DNA of 64,000 bases. Source: an uncultured virus (IMG/VR IMGVR_UViG_3300028886_001624) (taxonomy: Duplodnaviria; Heunggongvirae; Uroviricota; Caudoviricetes). The notes under the pieces are model-generated. The model ran no database searches and had not been told where the DNA came from. It saw only the letters and a list, made by a program, of their open reading frames with translations. The stretch is from positions 1 to 64,000 of IMG/VR virus record IMGVR_UViG_3300028886_001624; one strand, 5' to 3'. The translations under genes were made by a program, and so were the position numbers. Positions 2,625-64,000 of the stretch are shown here, one piece after another; position 1 is the first letter of the stretch, and every line of letters begins with the position of its first letter.

Positions 2625-2655
2625 ATGAGCAACCGGAAAAAGGTTGCTCATTTTT
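2625..2655. terminator. Hairpin terminator between convergent genes
   Basis: ATGAGCAACC / GGTTGCTCAT inverted repeat followed by T run. Confidence 0.7.
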
Positions 2656-4027
2656 CATAAACCATTGAACCACAATCAAATATCCTAAAAACTTTTTTAT
2701 TTTTGGGTATTTTTCTAAAATCTTCCTTCGAAATTCTTTCGATTTTGTTTCCGTACCTAAAGGTATACGACGGCTGTTCTATTGAAACCAACTTAAAGCC
2801 AATTAACTTAAAAACATTTTCTTTGTTTGACCACCTCATATCAACATGAACGGTAAGTTTTTCGTGACTATAGTTTTTTTCAAGATATGATATTAGTTTT
2901 GAAACCAAACCTTGGAACCTATATTTGAGGCTAGTTGCTAACCTAATAACCTCTAGATTCTTACCATTTCTATTGAAAGATAGAACACCGACCAATTCTC
3001 CTTTGAAAAATGCCCCAAGAGTAATATTTGCCCTGCCATATCCTTCCAAACAGTTCTCTTCCAAAAACTTAATCGAGTCACCTCCATCAATCTCATGGAT
3101 TGAACATTTTCTAGCCGGTATCTTTTTTCCTTTATCCATCTGAAGAATGTGAAGCAGTTTTTTCTTGACAATTTCCTTCTTCAACAACCACTCATCTTCG
3201 AAGATATGAATTAGCCTTATTCCATTCTTTTCACAACCAATCGTCTTATTCAAATGGTAATTTGAGTCTTTGGTGAACTCGTCAGAATGCCATTTAAGAC
3301 CATCGTACTCGATTCCAATGTTGTATTTTGGCAGAAAAATATCAACCTCTTTCCTACTTCCCTTTATGAGGTTTCTTTTTCTTTCGACCACTTCAAGACC
3401 GTTTTCCTTAAGAAATTCAACAACCTCTTGTTCTTGACTTGAGACGGAAACACCACATTTCGGACATCCATGTCCACGCAGATGACTATCTATCTCTTGC
3501 TTGAACTCTCCATGTACCGGGCATATGATTGAAACTTTCTCCTTTTGATTCTTAATTGGTTGTTCAATGTACTTGTATTTGTCACCGTGAATCTTATTCG
3601 CTCTTTCAACAAAGTCTTCAAATTTGATGATTTTTCCCTTGTTCCTATTTTCATTTGCGCATTTTGGGCATCCTCTTCCGCTTAAGTGATTCTGTGGTGT
3701 TTGCCAAAATTCTCCGTGCCTTGAACATACAATGCAGACTTTTGTTTCACTATTCACATATTCGACTTTGGAATAATCATACTTGTCACCGTGTACGTTT
3801 TTAGCCTTATCAACAAATTCATCACTCGTATTTTTGTGCTTTCCGCCACATACCGCGCATCCGTTTCCCCTGCTCGTATGGCAGAACGGTATTTGCCAAA
3901 ACTCTCCATGCTTTGGGCATACAATGCAGACCTTGGTACGGTTGTTGACATAGTTTACCTTTGAGTAATCATACTTGTTTCCGTGTACAACCTTAGCCTT
4001 TTGAATGAATAAGTCTCGTTTTGCCAT
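2648..4027 (-). CDS. Zinc-ribbon repeat (DUF723-like) protein with PD-(D/E)XK/Vsr-like nuclease domain; homing-endonuclease-like
   Basis: Repeats HGxKYDYSKV..CPKHGEFWQ..H..GxGCPxC; EVDIFLP..IGIEYDGLKWH; LIHIFEDEW. Confidence 0.75.
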   Translation of the reverse strand: MAKRDLFIQKAKVVHGNKYDYSKVNYVNNRTKVCIVCPKHGEFWQIPFCHTSRGNGCAVCGGKHKNTSDEFVDKAKNVHGDKYDYSKVEYVNSETKVCIVCSRHGEFWQTPQNHLSGRGCPKCANENRNKGKIIKFEDFVERANKIHGDKYKYIEQPIKNQKEKVSIICPVHGEFKQEIDSHLRGHGCPKCGVSVSSQEQEVVEFLKENGLEVVERKRNLIKGSRKEVDIFLPKYNIGIEYDGLKWHSDEFTKDSNYHLNKTIGCEKNGIRLIHIFEDEWLLKKEIVKKKLLHILQMDKGKKIPARKCSIHEIDGGDSIKFLEENCLEGYGRANITLGAFFKGELVGVLSFNRNGKNLEVIRLATSLKYRFQGLVSKLISYLEKNYSHEKLTVHVDMRWSNKENVFKLIGFKLVSIEQPSYTFRYGNKIERISKEDFRKIPKNKKVFRIFDCGSMVYEK

Positions 4028-22287: not shown

Positions 22288-23700
22288 TTGTATTCTCTTG
22301 TTTATAATATTGACGTTGATATATCTCTGTTATATTGGATTGAACGGTTGATTACAGATAAGAAAGAACTTTTAAATAAAATATTGAAGACCAACGAAGA
22401 ATATATTAAGGACGCGATTGGAATACATGGGAATAAATATTCCTATGAGAAAACTGTTTATCTTGGGAGCAAAAAGAAAGTGTGTATAATTTGCCCCAAG
22501 CATGGGGAGTTTTGGCAAGAAGCAAATTCTCATTTAAAAGGGTGTGGGTGTCCCATGTGTTTTAGGGAAAAACGTAGTGAAGAAAATAAAACTACATTCG
22601 ATAAATTTATTCGTAAATGCAGAATGATACATGGTGAACTTTATCATTATGATGAGAGTACTTTTACCGATATGCATACTAAAACCAAAATAACTTGCCC
22701 GATTCATGGTGAGTTTTGGCAGACACCCGCTTCACACCTTAATGGTAAAGGTTGTCCAAAATGTTCAAGGGGTAGCAAATACACAACTGAGGATTGGATA
22801 GAGAAATCCAAAACGGTTCACGGTGAAACATACGACTATTCAAAATCAAATTATATTAGTACGAGAGAAAAAATATGTATCATCTGTCCTAAACATGGGG
22901 AGTTTTGGCAACTACCAAATAAACATTTGGAAGGTCAAGGATGTCCAAATTGCTCAAAAGAAAAAAGAAGATATACTATTGAACAATTCATCGAAATGGC
23001 AAAAAAAGTCCACGGTGATAAATATGATTATTCGAATTCTGAATATGTGAATAGTAGAACTAAAATTAAAATAATATGTCAAAAACACGGTGAATTTTGG
23101 ATGAAGCCAAATGACCATTTGAATGGTCAAGGGTGTCCAAAGTGTGGTGATGAAAAAATGGCCGATAAAAGTAGGTTAAATATTAATGAAATTTTAAATA
23201 GATTTTCAAAAATTTACAATGATAAATATTCCTATGAACTTTGGAATAATGATTATAAAAACATTGAAGATGTAATACCAATAATTTGTCCCAAACACGG
23301 GTTATTCCACAAGACCGTCCATCAACATTTGCAGGGCCAAGGGTGTCCGAAATGTAATTCTAGCATATTGGAGAATAATATGCGAAATTTCCTAAATGAG
23401 AATAGTATTACGTTCTCTGAACAGCAAAAATTTGATTGGTTGGGCAAAATGAGTTTTGATTTTTACCTATCAGATTATAAAATCGCAATTGAATGTCAAG
23501 GTGAACAGCATTTTAAACCCTTTGAGTATTTTGGTGGGGAGTTATCACTTGAAAAACAAATAAAAAGAGATAAGTTAAAAGAAAAACTTGCAACCGAGAA
23601 TGACATAGAAATATTGTATTATTCAAATAAAAAATATAACGATAATATCATTACAGATAAGAAAGAAATTTTAAATAAAATATTGAAAAATTATGAGTAG
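22288..23700 (+). CDS. Zinc-ribbon repeat endonuclease (homing-endonuclease-like); start uncertain
   Basis: Five CxxHG..GCPxC repeats; FDFYLSDYKIAIECQGEQH. Confidence 0.75.
   Translation: MYSLVYNIDVDISLLYWIERLITDKKELLNKILKTNEEYIKDAIGIHGNKYSYEKTVYLGSKKKVCIICPKHGEFWQEANSHLKGCGCPMCFREKRSEENKTTFDKFIRKCRMIHGELYHYDESTFTDMHTKTKITCPIHGEFWQTPASHLNGKGCPKCSRGSKYTTEDWIEKSKTVHGETYDYSKSNYISTREKICIICPKHGEFWQLPNKHLEGQGCPNCSKEKRRYTIEQFIEMAKKVHGDKYDYSNSEYVNSRTKIKIICQKHGEFWMKPNDHLNGQGCPKCGDEKMADKSRLNINEILNRFSKIYNDKYSYELWNNDYKNIEDVIPIICPKHGLFHKTVHQHLQGQGCPKCNSSILENNMRNFLNENSITFSEQQKFDWLGKMSFDFYLSDYKIAIECQGEQHFKPFEYFGGELSLEKQIKRDKLKEKLATENDIEILYYSNKKYNDNIITDKKEILNKILKNYE
22351..23687 (+). repeat. 38-bp direct repeat (22351-22388 and 23650-23687) bracketing the endonuclease gene
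   Basis: ATTACAGATAAGAAAGAA(C/A)TTTTAAATAAAATATTGAA, 37/38 identical. Confidence 0.9.
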
Positions 23701-59962: not shown

Positions 59963-60982
59963 ATGAAAAAGTTAATTTTGTTTTTGGCACTTATCTGTGC
60001 CACAGTTTCGATGAGGGCACAGATTGCCACTCAGAACAGTAATGCCTTGGATAATATCGGTGTAGGTGTTACGGTTGGTGCAACGGCACCGTTGGATTTC
60101 AATGACGTTCTGCCATTAAACACAAACTTCGGTCTTAAACTGACAAAGGACATCAGTCCCAAGTTCGGCTTGCAGTTGGAAGCGTTAGGATTTTTGAACG
60201 ACAATCACTTCAGCAATGTCAAGACCGCAATCAAGGCTACGAATGTAGGACTTAATGGTGTGACAAACCTATCTAACTTATTTGGTGGGTACAAGGGAAC
60301 ACCTAGATTATTTGAAGTTGGCCTAGTTGGTGGCCTCGGATGGTTACACACTTGGAATTCCGCCAATAATTTCCTTTCTGCAAAAACCGGCCTCGACCTT
60401 TCATTTAACATGGGCAAGAAGAAGGCACACAGTTTGGTCTTAACACCGGCAGTATATTGGAATCTGAACAAGTTTAATAAAATCCAATTCAACAAGAATG
60501 GTTCACAGTTGGCCCTTAACGTAACTTATGTATATCACTTCAAGACTAGCAACGGCACACACCATTTTAAGACATATGATATTGGTGCGATGAACGATGA
60601 AATCAATTATCTGAAGGGTCGCTTGGATGAATGTGAGAAGCAGAGTCCAAAGATTATCCAAAAGATTGTTGAACGCCAAGTTGAAAAGAAGGTTTCACAG
60701 CCAACACCAATGCAATGGTTAGTACAGTTTGCAAAAGGCAATGCGGACCTCAGCATCAAGGGCATGGAAACTCTGAACACCATCAAGGAAGGCACTGTTG
60801 TTGAAATTGTCGGTATGGCTTCTCCGGAAGGTTCACATGACTTCAATATGACATTGTCTAACAGACGCGCAAAGGTTGTGGCTGATTATCTTGAGACACG
60901 CGGCGTCAAGGTGAAGTCTTGTCGTGGAATCGACACGTCCAAGGATACGAACAGACTTGCAATTGTCACGATTGCAGAGTGA
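59963..60982 (+). CDS. OmpA-family outer membrane protein
   Basis: Signal peptide, beta-barrel, then G.ASPEG...N..LS..RA..V..YL peptidoglycan-binding motif. Confidence 0.85.
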   Translation: MKKLILFLALICATVSMRAQIATQNSNALDNIGVGVTVGATAPLDFNDVLPLNTNFGLKLTKDISPKFGLQLEALGFLNDNHFSNVKTAIKATNVGLNGVTNLSNLFGGYKGTPRLFEVGLVGGLGWLHTWNSANNFLSAKTGLDLSFNMGKKKAHSLVLTPAVYWNLNKFNKIQFNKNGSQLALNVTYVYHFKTSNGTHHFKTYDIGAMNDEINYLKGRLDECEKQSPKIIQKIVERQVEKKVSQPTPMQWLVQFAKGNADLSIKGMETLNTIKEGTVVEIVGMASPEGSHDFNMTLSNRRAKVVADYLETRGVKVKSCRGIDTSKDTNRLAIVTIAE

Positions 60983-61212
60983 GATATTAACAACTCAAAT
61001 ACAGAAGAGGAGGGGGATAATATCTAAAAAAAAATCCAATTTAACCGATAGTGTTTTTCAACGTCCATATGTCTACATTCTCCTTTAATTTGGTTGAATT
61101 GGTGGTTACTGCGACAAGTAAACAGTTCACGACGGATACCAATCTAGGCAAAACAGAGCCAATAAGTCCGTCACTTTTTACCTAACAGATAGAAAAAAAA
61201 AAATAATTCATT

Positions 61213-61431
61213 ATGGAAAAATGCATGCGGTGTGAGCACGACTTGATATTGACATCTAATTTTATGCTAAGTGAGGTTAGCGGGGTGGATTTGGATGAAG
61301 ATGATGATGCAATAGTGACATATGCAGAGTGTCCATATTGCGGTGCCAAATATGAATTGACCGATACTCCGGAATCAGAGAAGAAAAATTACCCCTATTG
61401 GAATGGAAACCATTCCATAGTTTACGAATAA
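61213..61431 (+). CDS. Small zinc-ribbon protein
   Basis: CMRC..CPYCG. Confidence 0.65.
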   Translation: MEKCMRCEHDLILTSNFMLSEVSGVDLDEDDDAIVTYAECPYCGAKYELTDTPESEKKNYPYWNGNHSIVYE

Positions 61432-61432
61432 A

Positions 61433-61982
61433 ACATAAGATGGACTCGTAACTCAGTTACAGTGAGGTTTAATCTCCACCAACTAAAGTTGAAATTTAGT
61501 AAATCAGCGGCATAAGTTCTTAATTGAATTGCGCAGGAGAGAATGGAGGTTTACTATCTTGCAAGAATTTCAATATGGTACTGATACAGTGAGGTTTAAT
61601 CTCCACCAACTAATGCACACATAAAAACCTCCGAGGGCGAAGATTAATTCTTCGATGGGCATACTGGATTGACAGTTGAAAGACCTTGTAGTGGCAAACA
61701 CGTGATTGAGGTCAGTGTGATACGTAAAGCAACGTGATGGAGACTGTGAAAGAGAAAAGCAGTGAGAATCTGCACTTTAGTAGAATCCTTAAGTGGATTG
61801 AAGGAGTTAATTGCTCTAAGACAGATGTAGGAGGTTTTACATTAGTTTAGTGCTGCTAGACCACAACAAACAAACAATCGCTGAAGGTAACATAGTGACT
61901 ATCGTAGTTACAAGGCAAATCTTGTAAGTCAAAAGCCTAAGCCTTCTTAGGGATGGACATAAAATGGACTCGTAACTCAGTT
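61433..61982 (+). ncRNA. ORF-less structured element flanked by a 26-bp duplication of a tRNA 5' end
   Basis: Direct repeats 61433-61458/61957-61982 and 61458-61486/61585-61613; multiple long stems. Confidence 0.6.
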
Positions 61983-62039
61983 GGTTAGAGTAGCAGACTC
62001 ATAATCTGAAGGTCGTAGGTTCAATTCCTACCGGGTCCA
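61966..62039 (+). tRNA. tRNA-CAT (Ile2 or elongator Met)
   Basis: GGACTCG/CGGGTCC acceptor; CAGA-CTCATAA-TCTG; GGTTCAATTCC. Confidence 0.9.
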
Positions 62040-62098
62040 CAATTTTTTCTTTTTTTTTTTTCTTGTTATATATATTTATAAAGAAAAAAGTGATTATT

Positions 62099-62440
62099 AT
62101 GACAGAAAAAAGAATTAAAGAAATAATAAGGGAATGTATAAACGAAATTACAGACAACGCGAATGACGATAGAATTAAATTTAACCCTAATCAATTTAGT
62201 AGTCTTACACAACGAATAAAAGAATTATACCCTAACGGTACTGGGGGGTTTCATCCCTACAAACCGGAAGAAAGGATAAGGAACTTTGAAGGATTATTTA
62301 AGGCTGATAATCCGGATTATAGAAATTTTAAGAAATGGAGGGAAAGGAAAATAAACGTGGAGCATTGGGATTCAATAAACGCAAATTGGGAGAATTACTG
62401 GAAAGAACTAGAACAACAAAAAACTTATAAAAAAATATAA
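62099..62440 (+). CDS. Hypothetical protein
   Basis: After TATTTATA motif; leader-like IKEIIRECINE. Confidence 0.6.
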   Translation: MTEKRIKEIIRECINEITDNANDDRIKFNPNQFSSLTQRIKELYPNGTGGFHPYKPEERIRNFEGLFKADNPDYRNFKKWRERKINVEHWDSINANWENYWKELEQQKTYKKI

Positions 62441-62512
62441 AGAAAAAGATACTTTTTGAAAAGTATGTTATATTTATATTAAAAAAATCAGAAATTTTAT
62501 TTGAAACATATT

Positions 62513-63126: not shown

Positions 63127-63348
63127 ATGAATAGCAAAATAAATAATACGAAAAAATCATTACAGAATATGCAGTTAAAAGTTGTTGAGGTCACAAAGAC
63201 AAACTATACTCTTGAGAATGGCGATGTATATGAACATACATTCGATATTGATGAGGACATTACAGTAGATGAATTTCAGAAACTACTTGATAATGCGAAG
63301 AACACAATCATCGAAACACTAAATAAGATTGAAAAAGATGAGATATAA
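63127..63348 (+). CDS. Hypothetical protein
   Basis: ORF coupled to the HTH gene. Confidence 0.6.
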   Translation: MNSKINNTKKSLQNMQLKVVEVTKTNYTLENGDVYEHTFDIDEDITVDEFQKLLDNAKNTIIETLNKIEKDEI

Positions 63349-63665
63349 TGGGCAAGTTACTAAAGATAGAAGAAGCGGCCCAATATCTCAATGTGTCACA
63401 AGATTGTCTTCGCAAATGGGATAGGGCAAATAAACTCAAACCACTTAAAACCGTTGGTGGGCATAGACGTTACAGCACAGATGTTCTTGACGAATTATTA
63501 GGAAAGAAAAATATTGTGAATTATGGAAATCTGTATGAACATCTTTGTTCCGCTAGTTACATTTCACAAATGATTGGTGACGATAATGCAGAAGAAATTG
63601 AAAAGATAAGAGTTGATGTGGGTGATAAACTACTTAAACTACACGAAAAAGAAATAGAATGTTAA
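63348..63665 (+). CDS. MerR/excisionase-type HTH protein (IS607 TnpA N-domain-like, no serine recombinase domain)
   Basis: EAAQYLNVSQDCLRKWD..KTVGGHRRY. Confidence 0.75.
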   Translation: MGKLLKIEEAAQYLNVSQDCLRKWDRANKLKPLKTVGGHRRYSTDVLDELLGKKNIVNYGNLYEHLCSASYISQMIGDDNAEEIEKIRVDVGDKLLKLHEKEIEC

Positions 63666-64000
63666 GGGCAATTAAGATAAGGTTATATCCAAATAAGGAA
63701 CAAGAACTGAAACTAAACAAGGTTTTGGGCTGCTACCGATTTGTCTATAACCAAATGCTTGCTCTCAAACAACAAGAATACAACGAGAATAAGAAATCAT
63801 TAGGGCTTACAGACCTTTCAAAATACTTTCACGGAACATTGCTGAAAGACGAACAATATGAATGGTTGAAGGAACAGAACACAAAGGTGATGAAGCAGTC
63901 AATAAGGCAGATGCTTTCAGCCTATGACAAGTTCTTCAAACAACATAACGGATTTCCAAAGTTCAAGTCAAAGAAGGACAAACAATCAGCATTGTTCCCA
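63659..64000 (+). CDS. tnpB: TnpB RNA-guided nuclease family protein (partial)
   Basis: MLRAIKIRLYPNKEQ..GCYRFVYN..WLKE..GFPKFKSKK. Confidence 0.9.
   Translation, partial: MLRAIKIRLYPNKEQELKLNKVLGCYRFVYNQMLALKQQEYNENKKSLGLTDLSKYFHGTLLKDEQYEWLKEQNTKVMKQSIRQMLSAYDKFFKQHNGFPKFKSKKDKQSALFP

Follow-up and report, generated by a model that had tools for sequence, protein, structure and literature searches.

A structured element beside a phage tRNA-Met gene: probable scar of a dead group I intron that carries an intact conserved RNA

The stretch of DNA analyzed here, hereafter the window, is the first 64 kb (64,000 nt) of a 135,815-nt uncultured virus record in IMG/VR (IMGVR_UViG_3300028886_001624; CheckV completeness estimate, 45%), and the subject of this work is an element of about 500 nt (61433-61965) that runs up to an intact tRNA-Met gene. 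We conclude that this element is probably a composite scar, in which the remains of a dead group I intron of a tRNA-Met gene hold one intact, nested and conserved RNA gene, hereafter the core. The ancestral tRNA-Met(CAT) of this ~370-kb gut/rumen phage lineage would have been split in its anticodon loop by a group I intron of 420-600 nt, as the tRNA-Met at the related locus L091 still is. What the element keeps of the split copy is a leader, a 5' exon stub of 17 nt and the 3' third of the intron, with an intron-less tRNA-Met bearing the same leader directly downstream; the passenger is a carrier stem, inserted in the P7' segment of the intron, that bears an intact 221-nt member of the core family.

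A first-pass annotation, made from the sequence alone, had described two repeats in this region, and both were recovered exactly where it placed them: a 26-nt direct repeat, of which 25/26 positions are identical, and an exact 29-nt repeat (Table 1). The first 26-nt copy breaks off in the D loop after tRNA position 17 and the second continues as the intact tRNA-Met(CAT), again as it had been described, and the longest open reading frame (ORF) in 61433-61965 is at most 43 amino acids (aa), so that the element is indeed ORF-less. The 26-nt repeat is the tRNA-Met leader plus 5' end, present once as the stub before the intron wreck and once at the intact gene; it exists because the intact intron-less tRNA-Met downstream carries the same leader as the stub. 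The first copy of the 29-nt repeat, lodged between the exon stub and the P8 hairpin, appears to have arisen when the intron/carrier junction was duplicated locally. It ends on CTAA, the start point of the intron hairpin, and a tandem duplication followed by a deletion would yield such a copy, with its inner end on the CTAA shared by the joined sequences. A 14-mer scan of the entire record saw both repeats at the element positions and nowhere else, and the element is therefore single-copy; the exact 29-mer had no match in IMG/VR. The helices named in the annotation exist too, and can now be assigned: TTGAAATT/AATTTCAA is the stem of the intron hairpin, and AACTAATG/CATTAGTT and AAAACCTCC/GGAGGTTTT jointly make up the carrier stem and the helix P1 that closes the core.

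Contigs from four runs of four studies were aligned onto 60900-62500. Both junctions of the element were bridged by contigs of two other studies (run X6, 61092-61515 and 61756-61965; run X4, 61758-62237), so the arrangement is no assembly artefact but real and common to close relatives. The runs holding the element sequence are bovine gut or rumen metagenomes according to their records. Two joints in X6 (61086>61966 and 61314>62468) are conceivable empty sites with sides of just 21 nt, which makes them unreliable, and they were not used; gaps in the coverage of the region in some runs were likewise given no weight.

The loci L042 and L052 share the flanks of the element, and in both the flanks are extended by a conserved intron motif. 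With 26 nt of this extension as the query, 21 loci were retrieved from IMG/VR, and at 14 of these ARAGORN (introns allowed) called a tRNA with an anticodon-loop intron of 417-776 nt across the motif. The tRNAs split by the family were Arg, Leu, Met, Thr and suppressors (anticodons tta and tca); two of the 14 calls are distrusted, namely L091 as Pro (read here as Met) and L105 as Phe(aaa). At L091 a 487-nt intron, which follows a T (-1) and ends in G, splits the anticodon loop of the orthologous tRNA-Met, whose exons 1 and 2 align at 87.5% and 85%, respectively, to the corresponding halves of the intron-less tRNA-Met in the window. The segments 61555-61590 and 61858-61874 of the window are 97% and 100% identical to positions 423-458 and 461-477 of this intron, respectively. 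A 671-nt slice containing the tRNA-Met intron of L097 aligned with Rfam RF00028 (Intron_gpI) over model positions 1-253, the full model, at 35.6 bits (E 2.2e-7), below the gathering score of 50. In this alignment the TTGAAATT/AATTTCAA hairpin falls at P8 and ...AGAGACAG, which comes next, at the J8/7 consensus; ACAGTCC is therefore read as running into P7'.

Of this intron the element keeps approximately the 3' third (P8, J8/7, P7' and part of P9); P1-P7 are gone and the middle of P9 is deleted from the distal remnant at 61856-61907. Since the catalytic part P1-P7 has been lost, the window copy is predicted to be unable to splice. The remnant has just 17 nt of exon before it and no 3' exon after the GTAG at 61904-61907; at L042 the intron runs into the 3' exon of a tRNA-Leu-like gene, and L052 is rearranged. 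No other part of the intron family was found elsewhere in the 135.8-kb record. Group I introns had been among the families that the first-pass annotation listed for checking, and here the outcome is divided: the element itself gave no RF00028 match at E <= 10 and did not present a catalytic-core (P3-P9) consensus, but its flanks are readable as a truncated group I intron by way of the relatives.

Three suppressor-type tRNAs (anticodons tta and tca, by ARAGORN) were encountered at L103 1216-1902, L093 981-1602 and L015 481-585, two of which are split by introns of the same family of 599 and 535 nt; such tRNAs hint at stop-codon recoding in some of these phages. A tRNA-Ala(tgc) at L018 1413-1594 (= L003, G001) has a 107-nt anticodon-loop insert that is unlike the 420-780-nt family.

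The carrier is inserted between ACAGT and CC of the P7' segment. Empty-site alleles, for which the first-pass annotation had proposed a search, were found in 19 of the 21 related introns, where the site reads ACAG(T/C)CCAGACC or a close variant and has no insert, and in contigs of runs X3 and X4, which join 61590 directly to CCAGACCACAAC, a sequence resembling 61856 onward. In the L105 intron a 33-nt two-hairpin carrier occupies the site without the core, and L092 is without this segment. The carrier with the core at its tip is present in the window (and in L058, a 366,743-nt metagenome contig identical to the element region over the 1,226 nt compared), in L042 and in L052/L028/L054. Moreover, about 120 nt of the middle (61655-61775) reach a summed depth far above that of the phage itself and occur in other sequence contexts as well; together with the direct joins at 61590, this means that the middle is a widespread module and that a module-less allele exists. 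Two nested cores represent two different subtypes of the core family, and because they differ in subtype, an exchange of cores by recombination through the conserved centre is suggested.

Table 1. Layout of the element and the adjoining tRNA-Met gene (positions in the window)
Feature	Position	Strand	Basis
26-nt repeat, copy 1: 9-nt leader and first 17 nt of tRNA-Met (5' exon stub, end in the D loop)	61433..61458	+	25/26 identical to 61957-61982
29-nt repeat, copy 1: apparent duplicate of the intron J8/7-P7' end (ACAGT) and the 5' part of the carrier	61458..61486	+	native junctions of L042, L052 and L091
Probable group I intron remnant: hairpin stem GTTGAAATT/AATTTCAAT placed at P8, then ATGGTACTGATACAGT (J8/7 and start of P7')	61487..61590	+	identity to L091; RF00028 alignment of L097
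29-nt repeat, copy 2: native intron/carrier junction	61585..61613	+	repeat comparison; related introns
Carrier, 5' half: small hairpin GAGGTTTAATCTC and 5' strand of the long stem	61591..61623	+	same carrier in L042 and L052/L028/L054; in L105 without core
Core: nested conserved structured RNA, 221 nt	61621..61841	+	model R1, 233.4 bits, E 6.8e-75; alignment A1; covariation
Core closing helix P1, 9 bp	61624-61632 with 61830-61838	+	
Carrier, 3' half: CATTAGTT... pairing with ...AACTAATG	61839..61855	+	
Probable group I intron remnant: rest of P7', start of P9 AGACCACAACAAACAAA, terminal GGTAACATAGTG...GTAG	61856..61907	+	identity to L091; comparison of L090-L110
49 nt with two short hairpins, possibly decayed 3' exon or spacer	61908..61956	+	kept in related X4 and X6 contigs
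26-nt repeat, copy 2, running into the intact intron-less tRNA-Met(CAT)	61957..62040	+	halves align to L091 exons 1 and 2
Intact intron-less tRNA-Met(CAT)	61966-62040	+	ARAGORN; Rfam tRNA, 70.2 bits

Homologues of the core were gathered by exact words of 18-26 nt taken from the module, which gave 9 loci in IMG/VR and 57 in metagenomes, nearly all of them in rumen-type records and one labelled human gut; the exact core word had no match in a prokaryote genome collection (185,579 species). A looser 18-nt word gave 18 IMG/VR loci, among which seven were previously unseen, two being true members by model R1 (L117 and L119) and five chance matches; L127, from the same word, is the weak copy of record G007 re-found. 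Both sequence anchors were present in 58 elements including the window copy (43 distinct sequences), and 34 of the 43 were aligned (alignment A1), L067 and eight sequences in which one arm holds a long insert being set aside. At least five contiguous P1 pairs can be formed in 57/58 elements, L067 having two, and the sequences of this helix differ widely. RNAalifold on A1 gave nine helices with 44 pairs, in which 99.0% of the cells are paired; shifting the partners by 1-3 columns lowers this to 34-44%. Compensatory changes on both sides were seen in 16 of the 44 pairs, including all nine pairs of P1, and the covariation backs P1, two internal hairpins and the base of the variable arm. Whether homologues covary had been raised in the first-pass annotation as one of the points on which its proposal would fall; across these 34 sequences covariation in the core is strong, with a score reached by none of 500 shuffles.

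The window copy is a full-length member of this family, whose size is ~200-300 nt. It matches R1 over model positions 1-227 at 233.4 bits, a value that is partly so by construction since this copy is in the seed; independent members score 207-241 bits. It has P1 then GAGG, with GTAG before, and keeps every invariant column of A1. Between phages the core is 84-99% identical (mean 91.4% over 150 conserved columns, biased upward by the exact-word collection), and in the same genomes a 662-aa phage protein is 51-62% and an SbcC-like protein 38% identical. Another idea is that everything here, the core included, is decaying and functionless junk in this phage. A host intron that is plainly broken and an unremarkable single-sequence fold are as that idea would have it; however, the window core scores on par with the cores of other phages (218-241 bits), has lost none of the invariant columns and is the sole copy in the record, whereas the surrounding intron has meanwhile lost approximately two thirds of its length, so we regard decay of the core as very improbable.

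The core had no family match in Rfam 15 at E <= 10, and its sequence words occurred nowhere in the literature searched except for one unrelated chance match. They were absent from the searchable supplements of PMC10690425, of which three files were unsearchable, so that its candidate-RNA catalogue may hold the family. RNase P RNA, transfer-messenger RNA, signal recognition particle RNA, T-box and cobalamin riboswitch were considered on account of short motifs in the core that resemble theirs, and all were rejected, as no Rfam match was found and the order of helices is unfit. A pseudoknot between the AATTGAC loop and GTTAATT, although it can be drawn, was also discarded: neither strand varies appreciably, one of its pairs is broken in four sequences, and it is incompatible with a covarying helix. 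A third candidate, the core as a group I intron with an exon-formed P1, does not agree with the base before GAGG, which is usually C and not U, nor with the covarying flanks, and there is no RF00028 match.

Among the homologues, a conserved insert of ~80 nt is present in the variable arm at L039, L061, L062, L077 and L078, and a different long insert at L079; A1 does not include these sequences. L077 contains two core-word matches 275 nt apart (78-103 and 353-378), possibly tandem cores, the second of which is cut by the locus end. In several phages the core is flanked by two other conserved non-coding blocks (L015 590-770 and 1020-1200; L017 1127-1223; L020), the upstream block giving weak Rfam DUF2693-RNA matches (E ~0.1) and the downstream block ending in a tRNA-like T arm and acceptor.

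Several observations weigh against the reading of the element as a dead intron with an intact RNA gene. On the side of the intron, six loci searched together gave no RF00028 match at E <= 0.01, and L042 and L052 gave no group I match at E <= 1; the family is assigned to group I from the one sub-threshold match of L097, in a single slice, combined with the anticodon-loop position, the U at -1 and the terminal G, and its splicing is a prediction. The order of the events behind the stub, the duplication and the intron-less gene is likewise reconstructed, and the 49 nt at 61908-61956 are left unexplained by the composite model. On the side of the core, collection by exact words inflates apparent conservation and misses distant relatives, five of the nine helices never vary, so that covariation is silent on them, and the core is not universal, as the records G011 and G013 have the intron without it. 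Single-sequence folding does not go beyond chance, 61433-61965 giving z = -1.46 and 61586-61860 giving z = -1.19, and the case for structure therefore rests on covariation among homologues and not on folding energy. On the other side of the balance, contigs of X3, an RNA library, cover 61657-61821, with ends and strand that are not readable and a source that may be other phages or DNA. In the same library the intron segment 61548-61601, of some relative, has a depth of 12,216, versus 6-81 in three DNA runs.

The distribution of the core was examined in two sets of records. One strong match per record was found in G000 and G002-G006 (model R1) and in G001 (BLAST), and among 22 further records five had one strong match, G007 had a weak one and 16 had none (model R1). 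Five records of the latter set reach a completeness of 90% or more; the core is present in two of them and the weak copy in one, and the other two lack it. The copy in G007 (325892-326146; L116 1501-1755, - strand) scores 20 bits and is the only divergent member found; it keeps AUGG.CAUACU, UGACAG, AAGAGAAAA.CAGUGAGA and CUCUAUG, and one invariant helix is seemingly replaced by a different pairing. In most loci the core is free-standing in a tRNA array, and it is nested in an intron in the window, L042 and L052. A tRNA lies within the available flank in 42 of 57 loci, at 10 nt or less in six loci; free-standing cores are sometimes 2-8 nt from the neighbouring tRNA. All 86 flank tRNAs called by ARAGORN share the strand of the core, and the same holds in the window, where tRNA-Met starts 125 nt downstream of the core. 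The intron family is a few hundred nt from the core in G006 and ~2 kb from it in G021.

As a working model, the core would be a stable RNA that acts in trans and owes its maturation to the tRNA-processing machinery. The element would be transcribed together with the tRNA array, the limits of the core would be set by the processing of tRNA ends, with RNase P cutting before tRNA-Met, and by the long carrier/P1 stem, and the core would fold into a compact RNA acting in trans; the dead intron may persist because it carries the only core copy found in the available 135.8 kb (estimated to be 45% complete). Our best guess, held with low confidence, is that the core acts on tRNA, on translation or on the metabolism of intron RNA, either as a ribozyme or as an RNA scaffold. 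In its full form the proposal would make the core a new class of phage RNA that acts in trans, either as a ribozyme or by docking as a scaffold on tRNA, ribosome or intron RNA, and that is single-copy in tRNA arrays of gut/rumen jumbo phages, holds at ~91% identity while proteins drift to 40-60% and is able to ride in group I introns. This is tentative, and we consider it possible but less likely than not. If it is true, phage introns would be vehicles that move small RNA genes between genomes.

Peripheral domains of group I introns can act in trans after separation from the rest of the intron, as is reported for Tetrahymena P5abc. The core might be a detachable peripheral domain that aids intron folding or splicing, in cis where it is nested and in trans where it is free-standing. 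It does occur both inside introns (window, L042, L052) and free near intron-bearing tRNA genes (G006, G021), is single-copy and highly conserved, and a helper of this kind would explain such conservation in intron-rich phages; for Jug-type gut jumbo phages an average of 18.5 group I introns per genome is reported (PMC12880540). The idea is weak, however, because G004 (98% complete) has the core and no BLAST match to this intron family, while G011 and G013 (100% and 98% complete) have the intron and no core. Besides, at the element the host intron is dead and the core intact, and no core-intron pairing was found. We therefore hold an intron-helper role to be unlikely.

The first-pass annotation had proposed a non-autonomous IS200/IS605 element or an omegaRNA-like guide serving a TnpB or IscB in trans, and this reading found no support. 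A TnpB gene (63659-64858, 399 aa, PHROG 506, E 5.6e-120) is in fact located 1.7 kb downstream of the element, with an ORF for a MerR-type helix-turn-helix (HTH) protein nearby, and the carrier-plus-core insert sits at one precise site of conserved intron sequence. Two tRNA genes and an ORF lie between the element and tnpB. Against such a guide, the element is single-copy in its record and the core is single-copy in G000-G006, and a TnpB relative was found in just one of five other core-bearing records (25% identity); G004, which is 98% complete, had none. Most core copies stand between tRNAs and not beside a transposase; in them it is the terminal helix that is variable and the interior that is conserved, opposite to the pattern of transposon ends. 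The CAAC-TAAA-GTTG that had been compared with IS ends is actually the junction of the first 29-nt copy with the intron hairpin. Neither HEARO, ROOL or GOLLD nor any other Rfam family gave a match to the element at E <= 10 beyond chance level; the search returned tRNAs only in the window at gathering thresholds, and chance-level CRISPR-DR25 and lncRNA fragments in the element at E <= 10. A transposon-type guide is thus extremely improbable. Omega RNAs and HEARO share with the core that they are ORF-less structured RNAs near tnpB, but the core matches no model, is single-copy and does not co-occur with TnpB.

Around tnpB itself we noted that the gene is preceded by the MerR-type HTH ORF (105 aa) with no full serine-recombinase gene (window 63348-64000; L002 1349-2859), and that a weak partial tRNA-like match (18.5 bits) and then a tRNA-Ser follow within 135 nt of its stop. 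A 331-aa ORF ~3 kb beyond tnpB (G000 ~67706-68701, - strand; L002 5707-6702) is, as judged by eye, presumably an IS1595-type transposase.

The other proposal of the annotation, a new tRNA-associated large ncRNA (non-coding RNA), stands in part: the central 221 nt belong to a structured RNA family of tRNA arrays with no Rfam match, but the whole 500 nt are not one RNA. A single large ornate ncRNA of the ROOL/GOLLD kind, with the intron-like parts as integral domains, would suit the rumen origin, the phage context and the tRNA adjacency, which agree with the reported picture of these RNAs (10.1101/2024.12.08.627333), and the arrangement is kept in the related contigs of the two other studies. 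Neither ROOL nor GOLLD matched in the window or in L042/L052, and the parts have separate histories, since the core is mostly free-standing and the flanks have their homologues in tRNA introns, of which they match the 3' third; in addition, the element is without sequences that every intact intron keeps. One undivided RNA is therefore quite unlikely. ROOL and GOLLD are of rumen or phage origin, lie beside tRNAs and have no known function; the core differs from them in being less than half their size.

The composite scar is best placed among tRNA introns of group I. Familiar IC3-type examples are those of cyanobacterial tRNA-Leu(UAA) and Azoarcus tRNA-Ile. Group I introns in bacterial tRNA anticodon loops are well known, with 5,292 cases mapped (bioRxiv 10.1101/2020.01.27.920355). 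Like them, the phage introns occupy the anticodon loop in many different tRNAs, follow a U at -1 and end in G, and one intact member gives a full-length Intron_gpI alignment. Unlike them, its hosts are jumbo phages, its members are 420-780 nt long with long extensions after P7', and the window copy has lost P1-P7 and exons and carries a foreign RNA on a stem in P7'. In the gut 'Jug' jumbo phages of 360-402 kb many group I introns interrupt protein genes, and the text of that paper does not contain 'tRNA' or 'transfer RNA' (PMC12880540). The nested core also resembles the passengers of group I peripheral loops, namely homing-endonuclease ORFs and GIR1 of twin-ribozyme introns (the latter cited in PMC12880540), in being a self-contained folded unit on a stem from a group I intron. 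It departs from them in that it has no ORF and no Rfam match at E <= 10 (GIR1 included), is mostly free-standing and was inserted inside P7', not in a terminal loop.

The phage RNAs closest to the core in description are RNAC and RNAD of T4, which are encoded within the tRNA gene cluster of T4 and undergo maturation along with its tRNAs. The core is likewise a small phage RNA with no known function, a likeness by description; it differs in being larger (~200-300 nt), in having a covarying closing helix and variable arms, and in its Bacteroidota-type gut/rumen jumbo phage hosts. RNAC and RNAD are small stable RNAs whose function is still unknown (PMC9697503).

The analysis yields a defined, covarying and unusually conserved RNA family of ~200-300 nt without an Rfam match, together with a covariance model and more than 40 distinct sequences, and the phages that host it are abundant in rumen and gut samples. 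Its position in tRNA arrays and occasional residence in tRNA introns suggest that it functions in the biology of tRNAs, of translation or of introns. The locus provides a worked example of how a phage tRNA intron may die, with a stub and a truncated ribozyme beside an intron-less gene and the passenger intact, and it bears on the idea that group I introns of large phages carry small RNA genes.

As regards the wider setting, the nearest complete relatives of the window phage are 174-376 kb long. Seven tRNAs, all on the + strand, form an array at 52.3-62.9 kb of the window (ARAGORN). A blastn search of the GenBank phage collection gave matches confined to the tRNA among the best 30 of 205 records, and an IMG/VR search confirmed no relatives of the two proteins flanking the element. 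A 72-aa ORF with two CxxC pairs and no PHROG family match lies immediately upstream of the element (61213-61431). The window further contains two HNH/homing-endonuclease genes, at 2648-4027 on the - strand and 22288-23700 on the + strand (PHROG 559, E 1.8e-97 and 1.1e-90, respectively), which fit an intron-rich jumbo phage.

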